NCBI GenBank assembly: GCA_016935665.1
Contig: JAFGQN010000148.1
Location: forward strand, 69,384-133,383
DNA length: 64,000 nucleotides
From: Deltaproteobacteria bacterium
Lineage (GTDB): Bacteria > Myxococcota_A > Polyangia > JAAYKL01
Direction of reading: 5' to 3'
The position numbers and the translations under genes are program-made. Below the pieces are notes generated by a model that had not been told where the DNA came from, ran no database searches, and saw only the letters and a list, made by a program, of their open reading frames with translations. Numbering within the stretch: position 1 is the first letter of the stretch; each line of letters begins with the position of its first letter. This document shows, piece after piece, positions 3 to 9,321 of the stretch.

Positions 3-104
3 AGAGTGGTTACGCGCGGGCAATACAGTCTGAAAGACGGCGACAAGGTAAGGGTGTACAGCGACGATAAGGGAACACTGGACACGGCGGAGGCTGCGCA
101 ATGA
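3..104 (+). CDS. C-terminal end of a periplasmic adaptor (membrane-fusion) subunit of an RND efflux system; partial, 5' end lies outside the window
   Basis: The frame is open from the window edge and ends ...RVVTRGQYSLKDGDKVRVYSDDKGTLDTAEAAQ*. Its TGA overlaps the ATG of the downstream RND permease (ATGA), the usual MFP-to-permease operon arrangement. Confidence 0.4.
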   Translation, partial: RVVTRGQYSLKDGDKVRVYSDDKGTLDTAEAAQ

Positions 105-3100
105 GTCTCTCCACGTTATCGGTGCGCCGCGGCGTTACCTTTGGCATGCTGTTTTTGCTCATCTTTTTGTTTGGCGTGTATTCGCTCTCCCGGCTGCAGC
201 TGGATTTGTATCCGGAGATGACGTTTCCCGCAGTACTCATCATGACCAATTATACCGGCGCCAGCCCTGAAGACGTGGAAAATCTGGTGACGCGTCCCAT
301 CGAGGAAGGTGTGGCGACTGTAAAAGGTATCGAGAAAATTTCCTCGCAGTCCAAACAGGGCGCATCCATTGTGACTGTGGAATTCGGCTGGGACAAGGAT
401 ATGGACCAGGCCGAGACCGATGTGCGTCGCAAAATGGATATGGTGACCCAGTTACCGGACGATGCCACGGTGCCCATTATTGTGGCCATGGATCCGGCCA
501 TGCAGCCGGTAGTGATGCTGACAGTAAACGGTGAGTATTCGCTGGTGAAACTGAAAGAACTGGCCGAGAACAATGTGTGCGAGAGGATTGAACGACTGGA
601 TGGGGTGGCGGCCTGCGACGCCATGGGCGGGATGGACCGGGAGATTCGGGTGTCGCTGAGGCCCGACAGCCTTGCCGCGTATGGGGTGGATGTTCAAACC
701 ATTATGACCGCCATTGGGATGGGCAATATTCAGGAGCCTGGTGGCGCCATTGACCAGGGCACACGCTCGTTCAATATTCAGACCACAGGCAAGTATCAGT
801 CGGTTGAGGAAGTGAAAAATGTGGTCATCGCCCAGCGCATGACGCAGGCGGGAAAGTCATCGCCCCTGTACCTGCATCAGGTGGCCGATGTGATGGACAT
901 GTTTTCCGAGGAAACACAGACCATCGAGGTGGATGGACGGCCGTCGGTATGGATAATTGTTCGAAAACAATCCGGTTTCAACACGGTAAAAGCCGCCGAC
1001 GCCACTATGGCGGAAATTGCGCGCATTAGGGTCGAAAGGGGGGACAGTCTCTCCTTTGGGGTGCTGTTTAACCAGGCCGATTTCATAAATGCATCCATTG
1101 GCAATCTGTCCACCACTGCGTTCATGGCTATTGGCATTTCTTTTTTGGTGCTGCTCTTCTTTTTAAGAAATCTTCGCAGTGCGCTTATTGTGTCCACTGC
1201 GATTCCGCTTTCGGTAGTGGCCACGTTTGCTGTGATGAATCAGATGAAAATGACACTGAATGTCATATCCATGGCGGGATTGGCGCTGTCGGTAGGAATG
1301 CTGGTGGACAATGCCATTGTGGTGCTGGACAATGTGTTTCGGCACCGTCAGCAGGGGATGCCCATTCGGGAAGCGGCCGTACAGGGTGCCAGGGAGGTAT
1401 CCATGGCGGTGACAGCGTCCACTCTGACCACGGTGGCTGTGTTTTTGCCCATTCTGTTTGTCCCAGGCATTGCCGGCGTCATTTTTAAGGACATGGCGGT
1501 CACCATTTGCTTTGCACTCAGCGTATCGCTCATTGTGGCCATCAGTTTTATCCCGCTGGCGGCATCAAGATTGCTGGCGTTCAAAAAGAAAAACGGAAAA
1601 AGCGAGCGGAAGGATGCCACACGGCGCATCGAAGGCCCTTATGGTCGGTTCCTCGCACATGCGCTGTCGAGACGGTGGATTGTCATGCTGGGCCTTGGCG
1701 CGTTGATTGGAACGACTGCAATGGTGGCTACCACCATGCCCACGGATTTCATGGCCCGCAACGATCACTCCATGGTGTTCGCGAAAATTAAAGCGCCGGT
1801 GGGCAGCAATCTTGAAGAGACAACGCGATACACCCACGAAGCCGTTGCCGCGGTGGAAGAGGCGATTGTGTTGAAGGATCGCAAACTCATTGCCGCGGAA
1901 ATTGGGACTGGAGACGGTTTTACCGCGCTCTTTTCAGAGGGGGTTCACTCCGCCACGTTGCGTATTCCCCTCTCGTCGGTATCGGCGCGGGACACATCAC
2001 AGGCAGAATATGAAGCCAGACTGCGTGAACAATTGTCGGAAATACCCGATTTGGAGTTCTCGGTGGAACAGCCCAATCCCACCGGTGGCAGCGGGGATAT
2101 GGAAATCAATATTCGGGGACATGATCTCGACGAGTTGCGACGTGTGGGGCGCGAACTGACAGATATGCTGGCCGCATTGCCCGAGATGGCGCAGGTGGAT
2201 TTTTCCTTTTCAGATCCCACGCCACAGGTGAACGTGGTGTTTGAACGGGACAAAATGGCGCGCATGGGTATTTCCACCGCAGCAGTGGGGTCGGCGGTGG
2301 CGACTTTTTTTCTTGGCAAGACAGCGGCGTTTTTTTCAGATGGTGACAATGAATACAAAATTTATGTGCGGTTTGAAAAACGCTATCGTCAGGATGTGCG
2401 GGAACTGGAACGGATGCCCGTCCCAACGCCCGCCGGGAAGACAGTGCCACTTTGGAACATTGCCAGTATTACCTTTGGTCCAGGGCCGGTGACCATTTCC
2501 AGAAAGAATCAGCAGCGGATGGTCACCATCGCCTGCTCGTTAAAGGATACATACATCGGCAAAGACGGCAAGCCCCATGGCAAGGATTTGGGCGCCTCCA
2601 TTGCCCGTGTGCAAAAGCGGCTGAATGCCTACAACTGGCCCGATGAAATGGGATTTGAAGTGGGCGGCACAGCGGAAGACTTTATTGAATCGTTTATCGC
2701 GCTGGGATTCGCGTTAATGGTGTCGGTGCTGCTGGTGTATATGGTGATGGCCAGCCAGTTTGAGTCATTTAGAGAGCCGTTTATCATTCTGTTTACAGTG
2801 CCGCTGGCGCTCATTGGAGTGGTGCTTATCTTTTCCATCACAGGCAACAACCTCGATGTGTCTGCCCTCATTGGCGTGATTATGCTGGTGGGCATCGTGG
2901 TGAATAACGGCATTGTGATGGTGGATGCCGCCAATCAGCGCCGCAATGATGGTTTGGATCGCAAAGCGGCGGTGGTATCTGCCGCACAAACGCGTTTGCG
3001 GCCGGTGCTGATGACCAGCTTTACTACGATTTGCTCCATGATTCCTCTGGCGATGGGCATCGGTGAAGGATCGGAGTCGTGGAAAGGGATGGCTCAGTCG

Positions 3101-3202
3101 GTGGTGGGGGGCATGAGTACCGCCACATTGCTGACGCTGGTGGTGGTACCCACGTTTTACACCTTTTTTGCACGAAAAAAAGCAAAGGCGTCAGCACGAT
3201 GA
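101..3202 (+). CDS. RND efflux transporter permease subunit (AcrB/HAE-type), 1033 aa
   Basis: The N-terminus MSLSTLSVRRGVTFGMLFLLIFLFGVYS...LDLYPEMTFPAVLIMTNYTGASPEDVENLVTRPIEE is the canonical RND start. The length and the 12-TM/two-large-loop organisation are typical, and several hydrophobic C-terminal helices are visible. Confidence 0.85.
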   Translation: MSLSTLSVRRGVTFGMLFLLIFLFGVYSLSRLQLDLYPEMTFPAVLIMTNYTGASPEDVENLVTRPIEEGVATVKGIEKISSQSKQGASIVTVEFGWDKDMDQAETDVRRKMDMVTQLPDDATVPIIVAMDPAMQPVVMLTVNGEYSLVKLKELAENNVCERIERLDGVAACDAMGGMDREIRVSLRPDSLAAYGVDVQTIMTAIGMGNIQEPGGAIDQGTRSFNIQTTGKYQSVEEVKNVVIAQRMTQAGKSSPLYLHQVADVMDMFSEETQTIEVDGRPSVWIIVRKQSGFNTVKAADATMAEIARIRVERGDSLSFGVLFNQADFINASIGNLSTTAFMAIGISFLVLLFFLRNLRSALIVSTAIPLSVVATFAVMNQMKMTLNVISMAGLALSVGMLVDNAIVVLDNVFRHRQQGMPIREAAVQGAREVSMAVTASTLTTVAVFLPILFVPGIAGVIFKDMAVTICFALSVSLIVAISFIPLAASRLLAFKKKNGKSERKDATRRIEGPYGRFLAHALSRRWIVMLGLGALIGTTAMVATTMPTDFMARNDHSMVFAKIKAPVGSNLEETTRYTHEAVAAVEEAIVLKDRKLIAAEIGTGDGFTALFSEGVHSATLRIPLSSVSARDTSQAEYEARLREQLSEIPDLEFSVEQPNPTGGSGDMEINIRGHDLDELRRVGRELTDMLAALPEMAQVDFSFSDPTPQVNVVFERDKMARMGISTAAVGSAVATFFLGKTAAFFSDGDNEYKIYVRFEKRYRQDVRELERMPVPTPAGKTVPLWNIASITFGPGPVTISRKNQQRMVTIACSLKDTYIGKDGKPHGKDLGASIARVQKRLNAYNWPDEMGFEVGGTAEDFIESFIALGFALMVSVLLVYMVMASQFESFREPFIILFTVPLALIGVVLIFSITGNNLDVSALIGVIMLVGIVVNNGIVMVDAANQRRNDGLDRKAAVVSAAQTRLRPVLMTSFTTICSMIPLAMGIGEGSESWKGMAQSVVGGMSTATLLTLVVVPTFYTFFARKKAKASAR

Positions 3203-3384
3203 CGTTCTCTTATTTGCCAGACGGCACGCAGACGGTGACTCTGGTTGAAGCGCTCCGGTTGGCCAGTGAACGCAATCTGACGCTGAAGCAGATGCAGCGG
3301 TCAGCGACCAGAGCACAGGCGCAGTTGAAACAGGCGCGCTCTGAGTCTGTTGGAAAGTGTGGGGAATCGCCCCATGGATGGTAG
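3199..3384 (+). pseudogene. Truncated outer-membrane-factor (TolC/OprM-family) gene; only the first 62 codons remain
   Basis: The ATG overlaps the RND stop (ATGA). The product MTFSYLPDGTQTVTLVEALRLASERNLTLKQMQRSATRAQAQLKQARSE matches the conserved OMF N-terminal motif (L-x-L-x-E-A-x-x-x-A-x-x-N-N-x-D-L). The frame hits TAG after 62 aa, whereas OMFs are about 450 aa. Confidence 0.6.
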
Positions 3385-3407: not shown

Positions 3408-3992
3408 CTATTTTTCCATATTCGGCGCGGTAATAACCGGGGGATACATCTGGCTGAAGGTGCCAGGAAGTGTGAGCGGATCCGAGAAGAACAATATCGC
3501 CACCAGCCCAAGGAACGCCAGCAGAATCAGGATGATGGCGGCCGCCAGCGTTATCGCTTTGGGCTCTGCAATGACTAATGTGTCATCGTTTGGCTGATTC
3601 GCCTGAATGAGAGTGATGTTCTTTGTATAGTCCATGATGCGAATACGGGTACTGTCCACCACAGCGTCGAATGCGGGAGCCCACCCATCCAGGTGAATAC
3701 GCCAGCGCGTGTTTTTTTCAATCTCTTCAACGATATGCGCTGGCCACCAGTGTCCTTCCCATTCCGCTGCCACATTGTCTCCCACCTGGAAATCCGTCAC
3801 CTGTGCGGGCATGGGAGGGTCGAGAAAGTGGTGGTGTTGGCCGCAATGAGCACAGCGCATTTCATGCTCCATCTCAAGTGCGTAGAGTGGCATGCCGCAA
3901 TTGTCGCACGGCAACTGGTGTGGTTCGGAGTGAAATCCCATTGGCTGGGACTGCGGATTTGAATCCGTGGATTCATGTGTTTCAAACGCCAT
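3408..3992 (-). CDS. Membrane-anchored protein with an N-terminal C4 zinc ribbon and a Tudor/Agenet-like beta-barrel (WEGHWW motif); paralogue of 5141..5911
   Basis: The start MAFETHE... is preceded by AAGGGGGAA 7 nt upstream. A zinc ribbon (CDNCGMP...x15...CAHCGQ) is followed by GDNVAAEWEGHWWPAHIVEEIEKNTRWRIHLDGWAPAFDAVVDSTRIRI and one TM helix (AITLAAAIILILLAFLGLVAILFF). Confidence 0.6.
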   Translation of the reverse strand: MAFETHESTDSNPQSQPMGFHSEPHQLPCDNCGMPLYALEMEHEMRCAHCGQHHHFLDPPMPAQVTDFQVGDNVAAEWEGHWWPAHIVEEIEKNTRWRIHLDGWAPAFDAVVDSTRIRIMDYTKNITLIQANQPNDDTLVIAEPKAITLAAAIILILLAFLGLVAILFFSDPLTLPGTFSQMYPPVITAPNMEK

Positions 3993-4134
3993 GATATTCC
4001 CCCTTGATGCAACGTCTAAAACTGTTTGGGGCACATTCCCCAATTAAAAAATTAATCACCTCAGTCGATGGTGTCACATGGGTCAACGCAGACGTCTCAG
4101 GGTGAAATTAAACCTGGGTTTCCAATACCTTGTT

Positions 4135-4977
4135 TTAGTGGGTGGCAGACTGAAACAGCTCGTTCAAAAAGGTTTGCAGTGCCTGCGAGATTTTTGCACG
4201 AGAAACTGTAACCACATCATTGTGGCCACCAGGCAACTCCACGAATGTTTTGGGGCCAGGGGCCGCTTCAAAGAGTTGGCGGCCATGGGAAAACGGAATG
4301 GTTTTATCGTCTAGTCCGTGAAAAAAAAGGACCGGCTGCTGAATGGATTTAATGTGTTTCAGATTGGGGTACTCATATTTTGAGAGAAGCCGAATGGGCA
4401 AAAATGGGTATGCGGCCTGTCCCGCGTCGGGAACTGCGGTAAAAGTGGACATCAGAATCAATCCCGCGAAACGAACTCGGGATGCCAGATGAGTAGCTAC
4501 ACCGCCTCCCAGCGAACGGCCGAATATAACGATGCGTTCGGGGGCGATTTGCCGTTGTTCCCTGAGCAGGTCCCACGCCGCGGTCACATCTTCAACAGTT
4601 CCTTTTTCCGATGGACTTCCCTCGCTCTTTCCGTATCCCCGGTAATCAAATATGAAAACGTTGACATGCAGTTCATGGAACAGGGTCAACAATTGCTCGC
4701 GCCCGGAGATATTGCCGGCGTTGCCGTGGCAAAAGAGGATTGTCGGTGCATCGTCGTCGCCTTTTAAAAACCATCCATGCAGAGCCGTATTGTCTTTTGC
4801 GCGAAATGCAATGTCTTCAAATGGAATTCCCCAGTCATCGGGGGTGGCCACAATATCAGAGGTCGGATGATAGACCATGTCGGCTTGTTTGATGTAAATG
4901 GCAACACACAAAAAGAGGTACACCGATACAATGATGATTGGAATCCAGAACATCATTTTTTTAAACATCTTTTTCAT
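4135..4977 (-). CDS. Membrane-anchored alpha/beta-hydrolase (serine hydrolase, GxSxG)
   Basis: An N-terminal TM helix is followed by HGNAGN (oxyanion-hole region) and the GRSLGG nucleophile elbow, then a downstream Asp/His region (FFHGLDD...GGHND). Confidence 0.75.
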   Translation of the reverse strand: MKKMFKKMMFWIPIIIVSVYLFLCVAIYIKQADMVYHPTSDIVATPDDWGIPFEDIAFRAKDNTALHGWFLKGDDDAPTILFCHGNAGNISGREQLLTLFHELHVNVFIFDYRGYGKSEGSPSEKGTVEDVTAAWDLLREQRQIAPERIVIFGRSLGGGVATHLASRVRFAGLILMSTFTAVPDAGQAAYPFLPIRLLSKYEYPNLKHIKSIQQPVLFFHGLDDKTIPFSHGRQLFEAAPGPKTFVELPGGHNDVVTVSRAKISQALQTFLNELFQSATH

Positions 4978-5140
4978 GATTTCACCAACCCCTTATTTAC
5001 CTTCGGAACCCAATTTTTGCAAGTAGTGGCACAGCAAGCAGTGACCCGGGTTTTGCATGCCAAACGCATGCAGGATCCCTCCTTTACACCCGACGGGGCA
5101 ATCCATTTATTATCTGAGGCGAAATTGGTTGAAAGCTGAG

Positions 5141-5911
5141 TTATTTTACGAGGCGTATTCTGGAGCGGGGAACCACTTCATCAAATCGTTCGCCCCAGCG
5201 GTAGTATCTGACCGTGATGTCGCCCGATTGGGTATCCACTTTGAGGGCTGTTCCTTCGTACCAGTTGGTCCCCCATTTGATGTGCACTTTCTGTCCCGGA
5301 GGCACAGGTGTTTTTGCTGTTACCAAATGTTCGGAAACAGGGCCGGTGACAATTCCGGGGGGATTCATTTGAATGGTGGCATCGGGCGGATTTAAGGGTT
5401 CGGGCACCAGCCACAATACAGCAAATCCCAAAATGGCCACCAACACCAGTGCCGCTGCGGCCACAGACGACATTTCGCGGGTCTCCGTTGTTGGCTGTGG
5501 CTCTCGCGCGGTCTGTTCATCCGTCACAGGCGTGACCTGTGGATTGTCGGTAATTGCGCGGATACGAGGTGGGGTTACAACGTCATCAAACGCCGGAGCC
5601 CAGCCTTCAAAATGAATGCGCCACTGCTGCTGTGGAAGCACCTCTTCCACCACATGGGCCGACCACCAGTGCCCCTCCCATTCCACGGCGACTCTGTCCC
5701 CCGCATGAAACTCCGGATTCAGAGTAGGGGCAGGCGGTGGCAAAAAGTGGTGACGCTGACCGCAAAACGAACAAATCAAATCGTCTGTACCTGAGTTGGG
5801 AAGCAGCGGCATACCGCAGTTGGCACAAGGTGGCTGATGCGCATCCAGATGTTTCGCTGCCTGTTCCGCAAGTAACATTGATTCCCGAAAGGTTGGTGTT
5901 TCAAACGTCAT
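5141..5911 (-). CDS. Membrane-anchored zinc-ribbon protein with two Tudor-like domains (one cytoplasmic, one beyond the TM helix); paralogue of 3408..3992
   Basis: The start MTFETPTF is preceded by AAAGGGGGG 6 nt upstream, the same start context as the paralogue. It contains CANCGMP...CSFCGQ, then GDRVAVEWEGHWWSAHVVEEV...WRIHFEGWAPAFDDVVTPPRIRAI, a TM helix (AAAALVLVAILGFAVLWLV) and a second Tudor-like unit (QKVHIKWGTNWYEGTALKV...ITVRYYRWGERFDEVVPRSRIRLV). Confidence 0.6.
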   Translation of the reverse strand: MTFETPTFRESMLLAEQAAKHLDAHQPPCANCGMPLLPNSGTDDLICSFCGQRHHFLPPPAPTLNPEFHAGDRVAVEWEGHWWSAHVVEEVLPQQQWRIHFEGWAPAFDDVVTPPRIRAITDNPQVTPVTDEQTAREPQPTTETREMSSVAAAALVLVAILGFAVLWLVPEPLNPPDATIQMNPPGIVTGPVSEHLVTAKTPVPPGQKVHIKWGTNWYEGTALKVDTQSGDITVRYYRWGERFDEVVPRSRIRLVK

Positions 5912-6081
5912 TGTTACCCCCCTTTGTCCGACGTTCAAGGGTTTGGGCGGGGCTGTAACCCTTTATCAATTTAATCACCTGCAAATTTATTGTCACATGG
6001 GTTAATCGACGCGACGTGGGTCAAAATGTGCACAGAAAATTATGGCAAACTGAAGGAGAAAAGGGAGAGGGAAGCGTTGTT

Positions 6082-8004
6082 TTACAGTTTGTCTTTTACA
6101 GCGTCCACGACCGCGGCTACGGATTCCTTTGGGCTTTGCTGTTCTGTATCAACGACCAAATCCGGGTTCACGGGTGGCTCGTAGGCAGCTGAAACGCCGG
6201 TGAAGTTGGGAATTTCTCCCTTGTCCGCCTTGGCGTACAGGCCGTCCTTGTCTCGCTTGCGACATTCATCAATGCTGCAGTTTACGTGAACCTCTGTGAA
6301 CGCGCCGTCGGGCATCAGCGCCCGTGCGAAATCCCGCATCTCTTTTCGCGGTGAAATCAGCGAGCAAATGACCACCTGTCCAGCATCGCTGGCCAGACGG
6401 GCCATATGCGCGATTCGGCGAACGCTCTCGCGTCTGTCTCTTTCGCTGAAGCCCAGGTCACCGCAGATACCGTGTCTGGCCACGTCGCCATCCAGATTGA
6501 AAACCTGTTTGCCCTGTTCAAACAACGTCTGCGCGACGCCCCTGGCAATCGTGGACTTCCCGGAACGAACATGACCGGTCAGCCAGATAACGTGTCCTTT
6601 GTGACCGTTTCGCGCTTCGCGCTCGGCGCGAGTCACCGTCACGTTTTCTTTGATGATATTCATGGACGCGCCAGTGAACATCAAATCATCCCGATTGGAC
6701 TCGGTGCGTGAGGACGCGTATCGTACCATTCCCGCCGCAACAGTAAGATTGTTGGCCGGATCGATTAAAATGAAACTGCCTGTTTCGCGATTGTTTTTGT
6801 AGGGATCAAGAAACAGAGGCATCGCCGTCTCGATGACCACACGACCAATCTCATTGAGTTTCAACGTGTCTGCTTCCTTGTTTCGGTGCAGCGTGTTGAC
6901 ATCAATCAGATAGCGCAATTCACGGATATACCCCTGAACGTTGCGTGATGTGTGTTGCACGATATACGGCGTTCCGGAATCCAGCGGTCGTTGGTCATCC
7001 ATCCAGCACAGGGTTGCTTCAAATTTATTTTCCACCCGTGGCAGGTTGTTCTTTCGAACGATCATTTCGCCGCGACTAATATCGATTTCGTCTTCCAGTG
7101 TCAAAACAACCGACTCGCCTGCCACAGCTTCCTGCTGATTGCCATCAAAGGAAACAATTTCCTTGATTTTAGAAGTCTTCCTGGAAGGCAGCGCCACAAT
7201 CTCTTCGCCCACGGCAATGGTGCCCGATGGGATGCGTCCCGAGAATCCGCGGAAGTTGAGGTGTGGACGAACCACATACTGAACCGGGAAACGAAAATCG
7301 ATGAGATTGTGATCAGACGAAATGACCACGTTTTCCAGATGATGCATGACGGTGGGGCCCGTATACCACGGGGTTCGCTCAGAACGATCTACCACATTGT
7401 CGCCATCCAATGCGGAAATGGGGACAAAAATCATGTCCGGAATATCGAGCTTGGTCGCAAACGCTGTAAAATCTTTGACGATTTTGTCGTAGACGCCTTT
7501 GTCAAAATCTACCAAATCCATTTTGTTCACGCACACCAGCACGTGGGGGATGCCCAGCAGCGACGCGATAAATCCGTGTCGTTTGGACTGGGTAAGAACG
7601 CCAAGCCGTGCGTCGATTAGAATAATCGCCAAATCCGCGGTGGAGGCTCCTGTCACCATATTTCGGGTGTATTGCTCATGCCCGGGGGTGTCGGCGATAA
7701 TGAATTTTCGCTTTGGGGTGGCAAAATAGCGATAGGCCACGTCAATGGTGATTCCCTGTTCACGCTCAGACCGCAGACCGTCGGTCAGAAGCGCCAGGTT
7801 GACCCCTTCTTCACCGCGCAGTTTGCTCGATTCTTCGAGCGCGTCCATCTGATCCTGGAATATGGCTTTGGAGTCAAACAGGAGCCGGCCAATCAGCGTG
7901 CTTTTTCCATCGTCAACACTGCCGGCAGTGGTAAAACGAAGCAGCTCCTTGTTCAGATATTCTTCAACATCGTAGTTACTTGTATTTTCAATTTTTGTAT
8001 TCAT
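6082..8004 (-). CDS. cysNC: Bifunctional sulfate adenylyltransferase subunit 1 / adenylylsulfate kinase (CysN-CysC fusion)
   Basis: The N-terminus has the GTPase motifs of CysN (GSVDDGKSTLIGRLL, DTPGHEQYTRNM, NKMDL). The C-terminal roughly 190 aa are APS kinase (LTGHVRSGKSTIA P-loop, ...NFTGVSAAYEPP). Confidence 0.9.
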   Translation of the reverse strand: MNTKIENTSNYDVEEYLNKELLRFTTAGSVDDGKSTLIGRLLFDSKAIFQDQMDALEESSKLRGEEGVNLALLTDGLRSEREQGITIDVAYRYFATPKRKFIIADTPGHEQYTRNMVTGASTADLAIILIDARLGVLTQSKRHGFIASLLGIPHVLVCVNKMDLVDFDKGVYDKIVKDFTAFATKLDIPDMIFVPISALDGDNVVDRSERTPWYTGPTVMHHLENVVISSDHNLIDFRFPVQYVVRPHLNFRGFSGRIPSGTIAVGEEIVALPSRKTSKIKEIVSFDGNQQEAVAGESVVLTLEDEIDISRGEMIVRKNNLPRVENKFEATLCWMDDQRPLDSGTPYIVQHTSRNVQGYIRELRYLIDVNTLHRNKEADTLKLNEIGRVVIETAMPLFLDPYKNNRETGSFILIDPANNLTVAAGMVRYASSRTESNRDDLMFTGASMNIIKENVTVTRAEREARNGHKGHVIWLTGHVRSGKSTIARGVAQTLFEQGKQVFNLDGDVARHGICGDLGFSERDRRESVRRIAHMARLASDAGQVVICSLISPRKEMRDFARALMPDGAFTEVHVNCSIDECRKRDKDGLYAKADKGEIPNFTGVSAAYEPPVNPDLVVDTEQQSPKESVAAVVDAVKDKL

Positions 8005-8019
8005 GGTATTGCCGCCCGT

Positions 8020-8910
8020 TTAGAAGTAACCCTGTTTTTTGCGATCTTCCATCGCAGCCTCTGTTCGTTTGTCATCCGCCCGTGTTCCGCGTTCCGTGGT
8101 TCGCGTGGCAGCCACTTCCCATATGATGTCGCGCACTGTGTCAGCGCGTGATTCCACTGCGCCTGTGCAGGTCATGTCGCCGATGGTTCTGAATCGAACC
8201 ACTTTTTCGGCGACTTCTTCGTGGGGATGTCGCTCCATAATATCGGACGCGAAATAGATGACTTCGTCTCTCTCAAAGACGTTACGTTTGTGGCTGAAAT
8301 ACAGGGAGGGCATGGGAATGTTCTCCAGCTCAATGTACTGCCAAACGTCCAGCTCTGTCCAGTTGCTGATGGGGAACACGCGGAAGTGCTCCCCTTTCTT
8401 TTTCTGACCGTTAAAAATGTTCCAGAGTTCGGGACGCTGATTCTTGGGATCCCATTGGCCAAAGCTGTTTCTGAATGAAAAGAAACGTTCTTTGGCGCGG
8501 GCTTTTTCTTCGTCGCGCCGTGCGCCACCAAGGGCCGCATCAAACTTAAACTCATTAATCGCATCGAGCAGCGTCGTGGTTTGAAGCGCATTTCGGCTGG
8601 CCCCGATTCCCGTCTCTTCCACGACACGGCCGGCATCGATGGACGCCTGTACTGTTCGCACGATGAGATTGGCGCCAATTTCCTTCAGGTACTCATCCCG
8701 GTAATCCAGAGTTTCCTGGAAATTATGCCCGGTATCGATATGCATCAGAGGGAACGGGATTTTTCCTGGGTGAAACGCTTTGCGGGCAAGGTGCGCCATA
8801 CAGATGGAATCCTTCCCTCCAGAAAAAAGAAGGACAGGTCTTTCCGCTTGAGCAGCCACTTCCCGAATAACGTAGATTGCTTCAGATTCCAGTTGTTTCA
8901 AGTGATTCAT
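8020..8910 (-). CDS. cysD: Sulfate adenylyltransferase subunit 2 (CysD)
   Basis: LLFSGGKDSICMAHLARKAF (PP-loop), ...ARRDEEKARAKERFFSFRNSFGQWDPKNQRPELWNIFNGQ..., and the C-terminus ...KRQGYF is nearly identical in pattern to E. coli CysD. It lies 16 bp upstream of cysNC on the same strand. Confidence 0.9.
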   Translation of the reverse strand: MNHLKQLESEAIYVIREVAAQAERPVLLFSGGKDSICMAHLARKAFHPGKIPFPLMHIDTGHNFQETLDYRDEYLKEIGANLIVRTVQASIDAGRVVEETGIGASRNALQTTTLLDAINEFKFDAALGGARRDEEKARAKERFFSFRNSFGQWDPKNQRPELWNIFNGQKKKGEHFRVFPISNWTELDVWQYIELENIPMPSLYFSHKRNVFERDEVIYFASDIMERHPHEEVAEKVVRFRTIGDMTCTGAVESRADTVRDIIWEVAATRTTERGTRADDKRTEAAMEDRKKQGYF

Positions 8911-9241: not shown

Positions 9242-9313
9242 GCGGGATTAACTCAGCGGTAGAGTGTTAGCTTCCCAAGCTGAAAGTCGCGAGTTCGAAT
9301 CTCGTATCCCGCT
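9242..9313 (+). tRNA. tRNA-Gly (anticodon CCC)
   Basis: I folded a cloverleaf by hand: acceptor GCGGGAT/ATCCCGC, D-stem ACTC/GAGT, anticodon stem TTAGC/GCTGA with loop TTCCCAA (CCC at positions 34-36), and T-arm GCGAG-TTCGAAT-CTCGT. CCA is not encoded. Confidence 0.8.
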
Positions 9314-9321
9314 CACATAAA

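Follow-up and report, generated by a model that had tools for sequence, protein, structure and literature searches.

Long and short zinc-ribbon proteins with predicted Tudor/chromo-barrels and a single membrane helix on either side of a hydrolase gene in a Polyangia-lineage genome

Two look-alike genes on the same strand bracket the gene of a membrane hydrolase, which raises the question of what the two proteins are and whether the three genes belong together. In the window, i.e., the whole stretch of 64,000 nucleotides that was analysed, the three genes occupy the following positions:

5141..5911, minus strand: gene A, long form, 256 aa (open reading frame and sequence; AF2 model mc4d223ca7793)
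4135..4977, minus strand: hydrolase gene, 280 aa (open reading frame and sequence)
3408..3992, minus strand: gene B, short form, 194 aa (open reading frame and sequence; AF2 model m03a53aa1ccfb)

Gene A encodes, in this order, a zinc ribbon (ZnR), a first Tudor unit, a transmembrane (TM) helix and a second Tudor unit. The order in gene B is the same up to the helix, which is followed by a 25-residue tail (…FSQMYPPVITAPNMEK) without the second barrel. The start of gene A was placed at the ATG (MTFET) lying 7 nt 3' of AAAGGGGGG, while the list of open reading frames carries the gene further, to a TTG at 5938. Gene B starts with MAFET, preceded by AAGGGGG, and a strong Shine-Dalgarno sequence is present separately for each gene.

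The two proteins share 42% identity across 200 residues (E 1e-46). Direct repeats between the genes keep a constant spacing of 1919 nt, in one register, from an upstream element to the Tudor core, where the DNA is 76% identical over 74 nt. The likeness of A and B is far beyond chance. An earlier note on this DNA had described the bracketing pair, a common start context ATG(A/G)CGTTTGAAACAC and a shared block GD.VA.EWEGHWW.AH..EE…WRIH..GWAPAFD.VV…RIR. The coordinates and the A/B identity confirm the pair, the start context was read correctly, and the block was seen in both proteins. Since the junctions of the locus were recovered in two independent Logan assemblies (L005 and L008), the locus is not an assembler-specific artefact.

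The upstream element precedes both genes:

5972..6005, minus strand: upstream element of gene A, TTAACCCATGTGACA-N13-GGTGATTA (alignments, promoter scan, motif count)
4053..4086, minus strand: upstream element of gene B, TTGACCCATGTGACA-N13-GGTGATTA (alignments, motif count)

The family-specific motif upstream of both genes, TGTGAC-N14-TGATTA, occurs twice in the 64 kb, compared to 0.05 expected occurrences. The copy of gene A is sigma-70-like (GTGACA-17-TAAATT), with a promoter scan match at 5996..5968. Judged from these motifs, the element is probably a promoter or an operator, and A and B would then be transcribed as separate units, probably under common regulation.

The protein encoded between them is an alpha/beta-hydrolase by its Pfam scores, which exceed the cut-offs (Abhydrolase_1, 69.6 bits against 25.8; Hydrolase_4, 65 bits against 27), and by its GxSxG nucleophile elbow, GRSLGG. 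It also carries an N-terminal TM helix, an HGNAGN motif and a C-terminal Asp (HGLDD) and His (GGHND), the latter two assigned by inspection. The best matches among PDB sequences reached only E 1e-11. More than 7,891 homologues were found at E<=1e-30, thousands of them at 45–62% identity, and the nearest relative (62% identical, locus L016) has no Tudor gene nearby. Compared with COG1073-type membrane hydrolases (relatives are labelled 'FrsA/DUF1100 family'), the protein has the same anchor and motifs and nothing distinctive.

It had been proposed that the trio is a self-contained module; the ZnR/Tudor pair would then regulate or localise the hydrolase. Such a module would suit three membrane-anchored products encoded on one strand within 2.5 kb, a gap between A and the hydrolase gene without a convincing terminator, and an arrangement that is real in two assemblies. 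Comparison with other loci speaks against it. In about 11 related loci with a solitary family gene (L001, L003, L006, L007, L011–L015, L017 and L018), neither a second family copy nor the hydrolase was found within up to 8 kb. A tblastn search with the hydrolase gave no match in L001–L015, and no hydrolase is among the genes called in L017 and L018. Gene contexts vary from locus to locus, and clustering of the neighbours yielded no conserved neighbour across the family loci that would suggest a partner. Because it was found next to family genes here only, the hydrolase is not part of a conserved module. Its ubiquity, the unrelated context of its closest relative and the separate conserved element upstream of gene B point the same way, and the module is regarded as highly improbable. 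Annotation should not link the function of the hydrolase to the genes beside it.

The surroundings of the hydrolase gene offer another reading of the arrangement. The G+C content of the hydrolase region is 0.48, compared to 0.53–0.55 in the flanks, and the block coincides, as the earlier note had stated, with a truncated outer-membrane-factor (OMF) gene, which lies next to B:

3184..3342, plus strand: OMF (OEP/TolC-like) remnant (tblastn of the L007 OEP)

The remnant corresponds to residues 63–115 of the 496-aa OEP of L007 (53% identity, E 5e-10), and the rest of the OEP was not found by tblastn elsewhere in the window. In L003, cysD-cysNC is followed by the long form; in L007, an intact RND gene and then the OEP gene are convergent on the long form. 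Flanks of both kinds are present in the window, with the hydrolase gene, gene B and the OEP stump between them. A local rearrangement fits the lower G+C of the hydrolase region and the destroyed OMF gene. Such an event may have brought the hydrolase and a B-type gene to the downstream side of A, at the cost of the neighbouring OMF gene.

With the hydrolase set apart, the question is reduced to the nature of A and B. The domain carrying the shared block was located as follows:

5555..5710, minus strand: A Tudor/chromo-barrel 1, predicted cytoplasmic, residues 68-119 (AF2, profile, cage positions)
5150..5302, minus strand: A Tudor/chromo-barrel 2, predicted extracytoplasmic, residues 204-254 (AF2, Pfam and PDB matches, cage positions)
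3636..3791, minus strand: B Tudor/chromo-barrel, predicted cytoplasmic, residues 68-119

Sequence profiles and models both support the assignment of this domain to the Tudor/Agenet/chromo-barrels, as had been suggested from its shape. In comparison with PDB sequences, the family profile matched the chromo-barrel of MRG15 at E 3e-5, PHF20L1 at 4e-4 and Eaf3 at 8e-4; the barrel of B and MRG15 share 26% identity in an alignment of 58 residues. The window proteins themselves remain just under the Pfam cut-off (MSL3_chromo-like, 26.5 against 28 bits), while relatives found by the family profile clear the Agenet, Tudor-knot and MSL3_chromo-like cut-offs. The AF2 models predict a five-stranded SH3-like beta-barrel, with pLDDT values of 80–87 for the first and 80–91 for the second barrel of A, and of 90–96 across residues 30-120 of B. 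The second Tudor-like unit that had been noticed in the upstream copy is present: it matches the first unit of B at E 3e-4, gives weak Pfam matches to Tudor-knot and Agenet below the threshold, and has PHF20 Tudor matches in the PDB.

The aromatic residues of these barrels deserve separate consideration. Residues H21, Y26, Y46, W49 and W53 of MRG15 align with W78, W83, F101, W104 and F108 in barrel 1 of A. In the order of the chain, an aromatic residue occupies the five positions of barrel 1 in 47, 47, 45, 47 and 44 of 47 relatives, and those of barrel 2 in 35, 41, 41, 40 and 34 of 42 relatives; a conserved Asp comes after them. According to the alignment and the models, these residues would form an aromatic cage at the barrel's open end, almost invariant in barrel 1. 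In B, Leu replaces the Phe/Tyr of the third position. Barrel 1 is acidic: its net charge is -4.7 in A and -5.3 in B, and the median pI across the family is 5.2.

The N-terminal zinc-binding motif precedes barrel 1 in both proteins:

5750..5827, minus strand: A zinc ribbon, C29-x2-C32-x14-C47-x2-C50…H54 (invariant Cys/His, Pfam and PDB matches)
3831..3908, minus strand: B zinc ribbon, C29, C32, C47, C50 and H54 (invariant columns; pLDDT ~90)

A C4 ribbon had been recognised earlier and is present in both proteins; the spacing given for it, x15/17, had to be corrected to C-x2-C-x14-C-x2-C in both. All 47 aligned relatives retain the four Cys and H54. Generic zinc-ribbon models of Pfam matched up to 26 of 29 members, a number reached by Zn_ribbon_3 (best E 1e-5, mostly under the cut-off), and the nearest PDB sequence was RNA polymerase subunit P/Rpo12 (RpoP; E 6e-4). 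The model of B predicts two CxxC knuckles with hairpins at 35-38, 44-47 and 53-55 (pLDDT ~90). The sequence motif is thus supported as a generic zinc ribbon, about neutral in net charge. A linker of ~15 residues (PP.P) joins it to the barrel, against which it is packed.

Each protein has one hydrophobic helix:

5408..5467, minus strand: A TM helix, residues 149-168 (AF2 helix; hydropathy and positive-inside statistics)
3486..3548, minus strand: B TM helix, residues 149-169 (hydropathy; AF2 model)

Over 56 family members, 133 K+R were counted on the N side of the helix and 61 on the C side, compared to 50 and 82 D+E, respectively, and no signal peptide was detected in these members. The charge distribution points to an N-in/C-out topology, which would place the second unit of A outside the cytoplasm, across the membrane from the first as previously claimed. 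The linkers to the membrane comprise 25–35 residues of low model confidence.

Many anti-sigma factors are likewise built from a zinc domain in the cytoplasm, one TM helix and a domain outside the cytoplasm, and the earlier note had drawn this parallel with anti-sigma factors and sensors. The ribbon would then sequester a sigma factor, or A and B would be a one-component signalling device; a family-specific upstream element would suit control by a dedicated regulator. The ZAS anti-sigma factors (RsrA, RslA, ChrR) resemble A and B in their cytoplasmic zinc part and, where membrane-bound, in the single TM helix with an outer domain. They differ in the HxxxCxxC motif, the helical anti-sigma domain and the adjacent sigma gene, all absent here: the alignments contain a four-Cys ribbon without HxxxCxxC, and no zf-HC2, RskA or other anti-sigma match was obtained from Pfam or NCBIfam. 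No Sigma70 gene was present among the called genes of L001, L003, L005–L008, L017 and L018. A tblastn search with E. coli RpoE gave one distant match, ~2.4 kb away, in L013 only; no conserved sigma neighbour emerged. The usual ECF promoter is of the GGAAC…CGT type, and the upstream element is more sigma-70- than ECF-type. An anti-sigma or related signalling role is considered very unlikely.

Other ligands for the same domains were also weighed, namely that ribbon and barrel bind nucleic acid as a membrane tether, or that the barrels bind lipid head-groups. For nucleic acid, an acidic barrel 1 (pI about 5, net charge -5) beside a neutral ribbon is unfavourable, and the ribbon gave weak matches of a generic kind, at E 6e-4 to 0.02. 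The top structural matches of the barrel are peptide readers, which argues against a non-peptide ligand in general, and the long, low-confidence linkers do not imply contact with head-groups. A nucleic acid or lipid ligand is therefore rated as unlikely.

The distribution of the family was examined with its profile, which retrieved 1,236 representatives at E<=1e-3; the layout was counted among the best 150. Of these 150, 56 have an N-terminal ribbon together with a TM helix, with one outer barrel in 39, two or more in 10 and none in 7. Members with the layout all come from uncultured Polyangia-type MAGs. Ten full-length homologues of A (253–258 aa) share its layout. No family in Pfam or NCBIfam covers the architecture of A and B, in agreement with the earlier note, which had not recognised it as a described family. 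Further relatives carry signal peptide or lipoprotein features.

Gene B requires a separate assessment. The pair had been attributed to a duplication around the hydrolase, and B could also be a decaying, functionless duplicate of A truncated by the OMF deletion. B ends exactly where the second barrel of A begins, its stop and the end of the OMF remnant are about 65 nt apart, it is a singleton at 90% identity among 5.8 billion proteins, and one of its cage positions is Leu, all of which would be expected of decay. Against this, short forms of 203 and 206 aa (P0135 and P0136) exist in other metagenomes at separate loci, with a tail related to that of B; the tail motif F.QMYPP.ITA is close in P0135 and weaker in P0136. 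B keeps every residue that is invariant across the 47 relatives, together with its Shine-Dalgarno sequence and upstream element, and its model folds with high confidence, as given above.

In bootstrap trees, B groups with the short forms of other metagenomes: the clade of B, P0135 and P0136 was recovered in 131 of 200 bootstraps, and the pairing of B with A alone in only 0–1 of 200. An origin of B as a local duplicate of A was rejected on this basis, and so was an accidental truncation, other genomes having short forms that end in a related tail. Decay of B is regarded as very improbable. When the cytoplasmic part alone was used, support for the B-type clade dropped to 18 of 200 bootstraps, and the age of the A/B split is uncertain for this reason.

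The explanation that we favour, with a somewhat better than even chance as a whole, is that A and B are long and short paralogues of an unnamed single-pass inner-membrane family with a reader role. Three known systems bear on that role. Bacterial chromo-like domains (Kaur, Iyer, Subramanian and Aravind 2018, PMC5906684) have been described as secreted peptide binders from which the chromatin readers of eukaryotes are likely to descend; for those with cages, peptides in murein or matrix were proposed as ligands. They have in common with the present family the SH3-fold barrel, the Royal-family likeness, the aromatic cage, an arrangement in 2–6 tandem repeats and an occurrence in delta-proteobacterial and other Gram-negative lineages. 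The outer barrel of A and the relatives with signal peptide or lipoprotein features fit the same description. In contrast to it, the best-conserved barrel here is predicted to be cytoplasmic, N-terminal to the TM helix and right after the ribbon, with barrels on both sides of the membrane; a secreted or periplasmic location is predicted for the second barrel of A only. What appears new, provided that the predicted topology holds, is a highly conserved, fully caged cytoplasmic barrel beside a zinc ribbon, with sister barrels outside.

The second system, and the nearest analogue, is the GltJ type of Myxococcus xanthus and other bacteria, whose ZnR-linker-GYF-TM switch was proposed to pass information between cytoplasm and envelope (Attia et al. 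2024, PMC11135422). GltJ is likewise a myxobacterial membrane protein in which an N-terminal cytoplasmic ribbon and a eukaryote-type peptide-recognition domain precede a membrane-associated or extracytoplasmic part. The resemblance concerns design only: the recognition domain is GYF and not Tudor/chromo, with no GYF match found here, the linker has about 95 flexible residues compared to ~15, and neither gliding-motility nor Mgl genes accompany the family genes. GltJ chains were absent from the PDB sequence matches, and the ribbons have no detectable similarity.

The third system comprises the eukaryotic Royal-family readers (MRG15/Eaf3, PHF20, TDRD3 and the plant Agenet proteins ADCP1/AGDP1), which agree with the family in fold and in the five cage positions. 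They are soluble nuclear or cytoplasmic proteins that bind methylated histone or Sm/PIWI tails, whereas A and B are predicted to be membrane-tethered and are bacterial. The host organism is not known to have such methylated substrates.

By analogy with these systems, A and B may be adaptors or 'readers' that span the membrane. With the help of the zinc ribbon, the cytoplasmic barrel, acidic and caged, would bind a cationic peptide of a cytoplasmic partner, possibly with methylated Lys/Arg, and the outer barrel a comparable ligand in the periplasm, peptidoglycan or matrix. A would thereby be a bitopic adaptor reading cationic peptides on both membrane faces and coupling the two compartments, much as the ZnR-GYF part of GltJ links cytoplasmic partners to the envelope machine. 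B, which keeps the cytoplasmic reader and the anchor, might compete for the partner or pre-assemble it without envelope input.

The most specific version of this proposal, a membrane-tethered intracellular reader of modified (methylated) Lys/Arg in Polyangia-type myxobacteria, made of a true Royal-family barrel with its cage complete and of a like domain in the periplasm, is unlikely. If true, it would mean that Royal-family barrels had become peptide readers of the cytoplasm in bacteria and not, as put forward in PMC5906684, first in the ancestral eukaryote, and that an unrecognised route of protein-methylation-dependent signalling across the bacterial inner membrane exists, with B as a built-in modulator. 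Confirmation of topology and ligand class would make the family a bacterial case of a Royal-family reader inside the cell and, besides the ZnR-GYF of GltJ, a second design for myxobacterial linkers between envelope and cytoplasm.

With the window proteins narrowly missing the Pfam cut-offs, the family merits its own name and profile; one of its relatives is labelled 'agenet domain-containing protein' by NCBI.

Three genes on the minus strand fill positions 3408..5938 of the window, as read from its ORFs and sequence:

5911 (ATG) to 5141 (stop), minus strand: gene A, 256 aa, beginning MTFET, with its start 7 nt downstream of AAAGGGGGG
4135..4977, minus strand: alpha/beta-hydrolase gene, 280 aa
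3992 (ATG) to 3408, minus strand: gene B, 194 aa, beginning MAFET

All sequence motifs that the earlier note had listed for A and B were found. Its C4 zinc ribbon is also present, but the spacing given there (x15/17) was wrong and reads C-x2-C-x14-C-x2-C in both proteins. A and B are 39–42% identical as proteins (42% across 200 residues, E 1e-46), and the barrel of B is also matched by the C-terminal unit of A (E 3e-4). Their DNA similarity is collinear: every repeat is offset by 1919 nt, across a stretch that runs from the upstream element to the barrel core and includes it, with 76% identity over 74 nt in the core. The junctions of the window were recovered in two Logan contigs of run SRR13394437 (L005 and L008), which cover cysNC-A-hydrolase and hydrolase-B-outer-membrane factor (OMF) stump-RND. 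A 'Deltaproteobacteria bacterium' MAG protein at NCBI (JXR76_19795) is identical to B.

Against Pfam, A and B gave only sub-threshold matches, to MSL3_chromo-like (26.5 bits, cut-off 28), Tudor_4, Tudor-knot, Agenet and various zinc-ribbon models, and no NCBIfam model matched them. The Tudor/Agenet/SH3-like fold suspected from the sequence is supported. A profile of 11 close homologues searched against PDB matched the MRG15 chromo-barrel at E 3e-5, followed by PHF20L1 and then Eaf3 and PHF20. The AF2 model of A contains two five-stranded barrels (pLDDT 80–91) and a helix at 149–168, and its Foldseek neighbours are tandem Agenet, SETDB1, 53BP1 and FMRP Tudor domains (best E 3e-5). For B, a model based on 47 sequences has pLDDT 90–96 across residues 30–120.

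The aligned MRG15 cage positions were W78, W83, F101, W104 and F108. These positions are aromatic in 44–47 of 47 relatives for barrel 1 and in 34–41 of 42 for barrel 2, and a conserved Asp follows each cage. Barrel 1 is acidic, with a net charge of about -5 in both A and B; the family median pI is 5.2. The ribbon has five invariant residues, its four Cys and a His placed four positions beyond the last of them. The ribbon type is generic, its nearest PDB sequence being RpoP (E 6e-4). Long forms (homologues P0003–P0010) also carry a conserved RAIDY.PGD(S/T)II.PP motif in the linker between barrel 1 and the TM helix, which is degenerate in A (residues 119–135, window about 5507..5557) and in B. 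This motif could act as a self-ligand or as a site for a partner.

The family is real and unnamed. A word-indexed search of 5.8 billion proteins found 10 for A and one for B, which had pointed to a tiny family. This view was dropped after a profile search run exhaustively against 1.84 billion representatives yielded 1,236 at E<=1e-3, of which 282 reach E<=1e-10 and 36 reach E<=1e-30; the apparent rarity is thus partly due to the search method. Among the best 150 of the 1,236 together with the close set, 56 members have the ribbon-barrel-helix layout, with one outer barrel in 39, two or more in 10 and none in 7. Two cytoplasmic barrels occur in a few members, such as P0149 and P0153, and P0143 apparently has no TM helix. 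Distant GC-rich Polyangiaceae relatives carry two outer barrels (L013 7971..8807, L014 7938..8819, L012 7878..8840). Many of the remaining matches are signal-peptide or lipoprotein chains of 2–5 barrels, and such relatives pass the Pfam cut-offs for Agenet, Tudor-knot and MSL3_chromo-like; in P0171, four barrels are fused to ankyrin repeats.

The genome records in which members occur bear the titles of Polyangia, Polyangiaceae or 'Deltaproteobacteria' MAGs, several of them Zodletone spring bins. A metagenome scan added one further, partial locus only (L015). One relative is named 'agenet domain-containing protein' at NCBI, and the literature search found no paper on a protein combining zinc ribbon, Tudor domain and TM helix.

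No signal peptide was found in ribbon-barrel-helix family members. Across the 56 members with N-terminal ribbon and helix, there are 133 K+R and 50 D+E in the 15 residues preceding the helix, compared with 61 K+R and 82 D+E in the 15 that follow it. Under the positive-inside rule, these counts predict a cytoplasmic position for the ribbon and barrel 1 and an outside one for barrel 2.

The surroundings of the three genes include the following features:

6082..8910, minus strand: cysD (296 aa, PAPS_reduct type) and fused cysN-cysC (640 aa, GTPase and APS kinase), directly upstream of A
3184..3342 (ORF to 3384), plus strand: remnant of an OMF (OEP/TolC-like) gene, about 53 codons; compare 794..2284 of locus L007

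The two copies around the hydrolase had been proposed to form a self-contained module. This did not hold up: when the window and loci L001–L015 were searched by tblastn, the hydrolase turned up only in the window and in the two Logan contigs that duplicate it. Comparing the ORFs of 11 loci (L017 and L018 included) and of 30 kb of the window with one another by BLAST likewise found no neighbour conserved family-wide, only the synteny of close relatives. The hydrolase is an ordinary one, with more than 7,891 homologues at E<=1e-30, and its nearest relative (62% identical) is flanked by a cNMP-binding protein and a sulfatase; the 'trio' is a local accident. G+C of the hydrolase stretch (4001..5000) is 0.48, compared with 0.53–0.56 in the flanks, consistent with a separate origin of this gene. 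A and the hydrolase gene are separated by 163 nt, within which lies a palindrome, TGCATGC-GTTTG-GCATGCA (5054..5072, minus strand), with no T-run behind it; it might terminate the transcript of A.

In locus L003, cysD-cysNC is followed by a long form, matching the window, and the pair also precedes the long form in L005. In L007, the long form and a gene for a 496-aa OEP converge, and an RND gene similar to window 101..3202 comes after the OEP gene. The neighbours of the short forms in L017 and L018 are unrelated. In the P0005/P0010 clade (L001 6863..7757, L006 657..1571), a 57-aa 2x[4Fe-4S] ferredoxin lies upstream of the family gene, which is also preceded by a 222–228-aa protein without clear family; this pair is close-relative synteny and is absent elsewhere.

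The OMF truncation noticed at the A/hydrolase/B block is real. Downstream of the RND transporter gene (101..3202), only OEP residues 63–115 remain; the signal peptide and residues 116–496 are absent, and no other OMF parts were found anywhere in the 64-kb window. With only about 53 codons left, the efflux pump is without its adjacent outer-membrane partner.

B ends at the point that corresponds to the start of the second barrel of A, and only about 65 nt separate it from the OMF stump; B was therefore first thought to have been cut by the deletion that removed the OMF gene. This was dropped when the exhaustive HMM search returned short forms at other loci. P0135 (203 aa) and P0136 (206 aa) are laid out like B, and P0135 has the same tail (ending …FPNTFGQMYPPAITATPME, compared with …LPGTFSQMYPPVITAPNMEK in B); the end of P0136 resembles both weakly. 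In the NJ tree, B, P0135 and P0136 form a clade sister to A, P0003 and P0004, recovered in 131/200 bootstraps with all shared columns and in 18/200 with the cytoplasmic part only. A recent tandem duplication of A was rejected, given the protein identity of 39–42% and the pairing of B with A alone in only 0–1/200 bootstraps. The metagenome of P0135 is also the source of the long forms P0003 and P0010, on another contig, so long and short forms predate the window genome. Elsewhere the two forms are not neighbours.

The simplest account, we infer, is a rearrangement. In the ancestral order, cysNC would have been followed by A, and A would have faced OEP and RND convergently. The arrival of a hydrolase and of a B-type gene would then have disrupted this order, and the OEP gene would have been lost for the most part.

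The results show how the proteins are built, that the cage is conserved, that barrel 1 is acidic and that the family has no constant partner gene; this descriptive part of the explanation is very probably correct. In Royal-family domains, a cage with a neighbouring acidic residue binds a peptide by its methyl-ammonium or guanidinium group. Kaur et al. (PMC5906684) describe the bacterial chromo-like domains as consistently secreted, and proposed that their ligands are peptides of this kind in murein or matrix. An A-type protein could therefore be a bitopic adaptor that reads cationic peptides on both sides of the inner membrane, and the short form would bind the cytoplasmic partner without envelope input. 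Taken alone, this mechanism is a tentative suggestion.

The barrels of A and B belong to the known bacterial chromo-like class, from which the family differs by its cytoplasmic, ribbon-linked barrel and its two-sided arrangement. The nearest characterised design to the proposed two-faced adaptor is GltJ of Myxococcus, whose N-terminal zinc ribbon (ZnR) and GYF domain bind MglB and AglZ, switching an envelope machine; according to its authors, ZnR-GYF modules are common ahead of membrane receptor parts (PMC11135422). The A and B proteins are outside the ZnR-GYF class. The likeness to an anti-sigma factor layout, also suggested earlier, failed on every point tested.

All long and short genes of the subfamily share an upstream element about 55 nt from the ATG, with the consensus TGACCCATGTGACA-N13/14-(G)GTGATTA(A/C)(A/T)T, after which AAGGGGG follows. 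Its copies, and the only Rfam match, are:

5972..6005 (A) and 4053..4086 (B), minus strand: upstream element, TGACCCATGTGACA-N13/14-GGTGATTA
L001 7926–7950, L003 3894–3919, L006 1772–1796, L017 3151–3176, L018 2078–2103: upstream element in other loci
9242..9314, plus strand: tRNA-Gly (CCC), the sole Rfam match at gathering threshold in the window

At the same threshold, no leader RNA family was found upstream of A or B. The only two occurrences of the pattern TGTGAC-N12-18-TGATTA in the 64-kb window lie upstream of A and of B (expected 0.05; 0/100 shuffles). Each related locus covering the upstream region has one element, always before the family gene, and it is kept before long and short genes despite only 35–50% protein identity.

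We read the element as the family's own putative promoter, possibly with an operator, since both halves hold GTGA(C/T) about two helical turns apart. A sigma-70 scan of the copy of A gave GTGACA-17-TAAATT. If the element is a promoter, A and B would be separate, probably co-regulated transcription units. A sigma-54 reading (TGTGAC…TTGCA in A) was rejected for its wrong spacing and the lack of TTGC in B.

The start peptide M-(T/A)-(F/L)-E-(T/S) is kept throughout the close subfamily. The first five codons, ATG (A/G)CG TTT GAA AC (5897..5911 and 3978..3992, minus strand), are conserved at the nucleotide level, synonymous sites included, in A, B, L001, L003 and L005; translation initiation or an N-terminal signal could be the cause.
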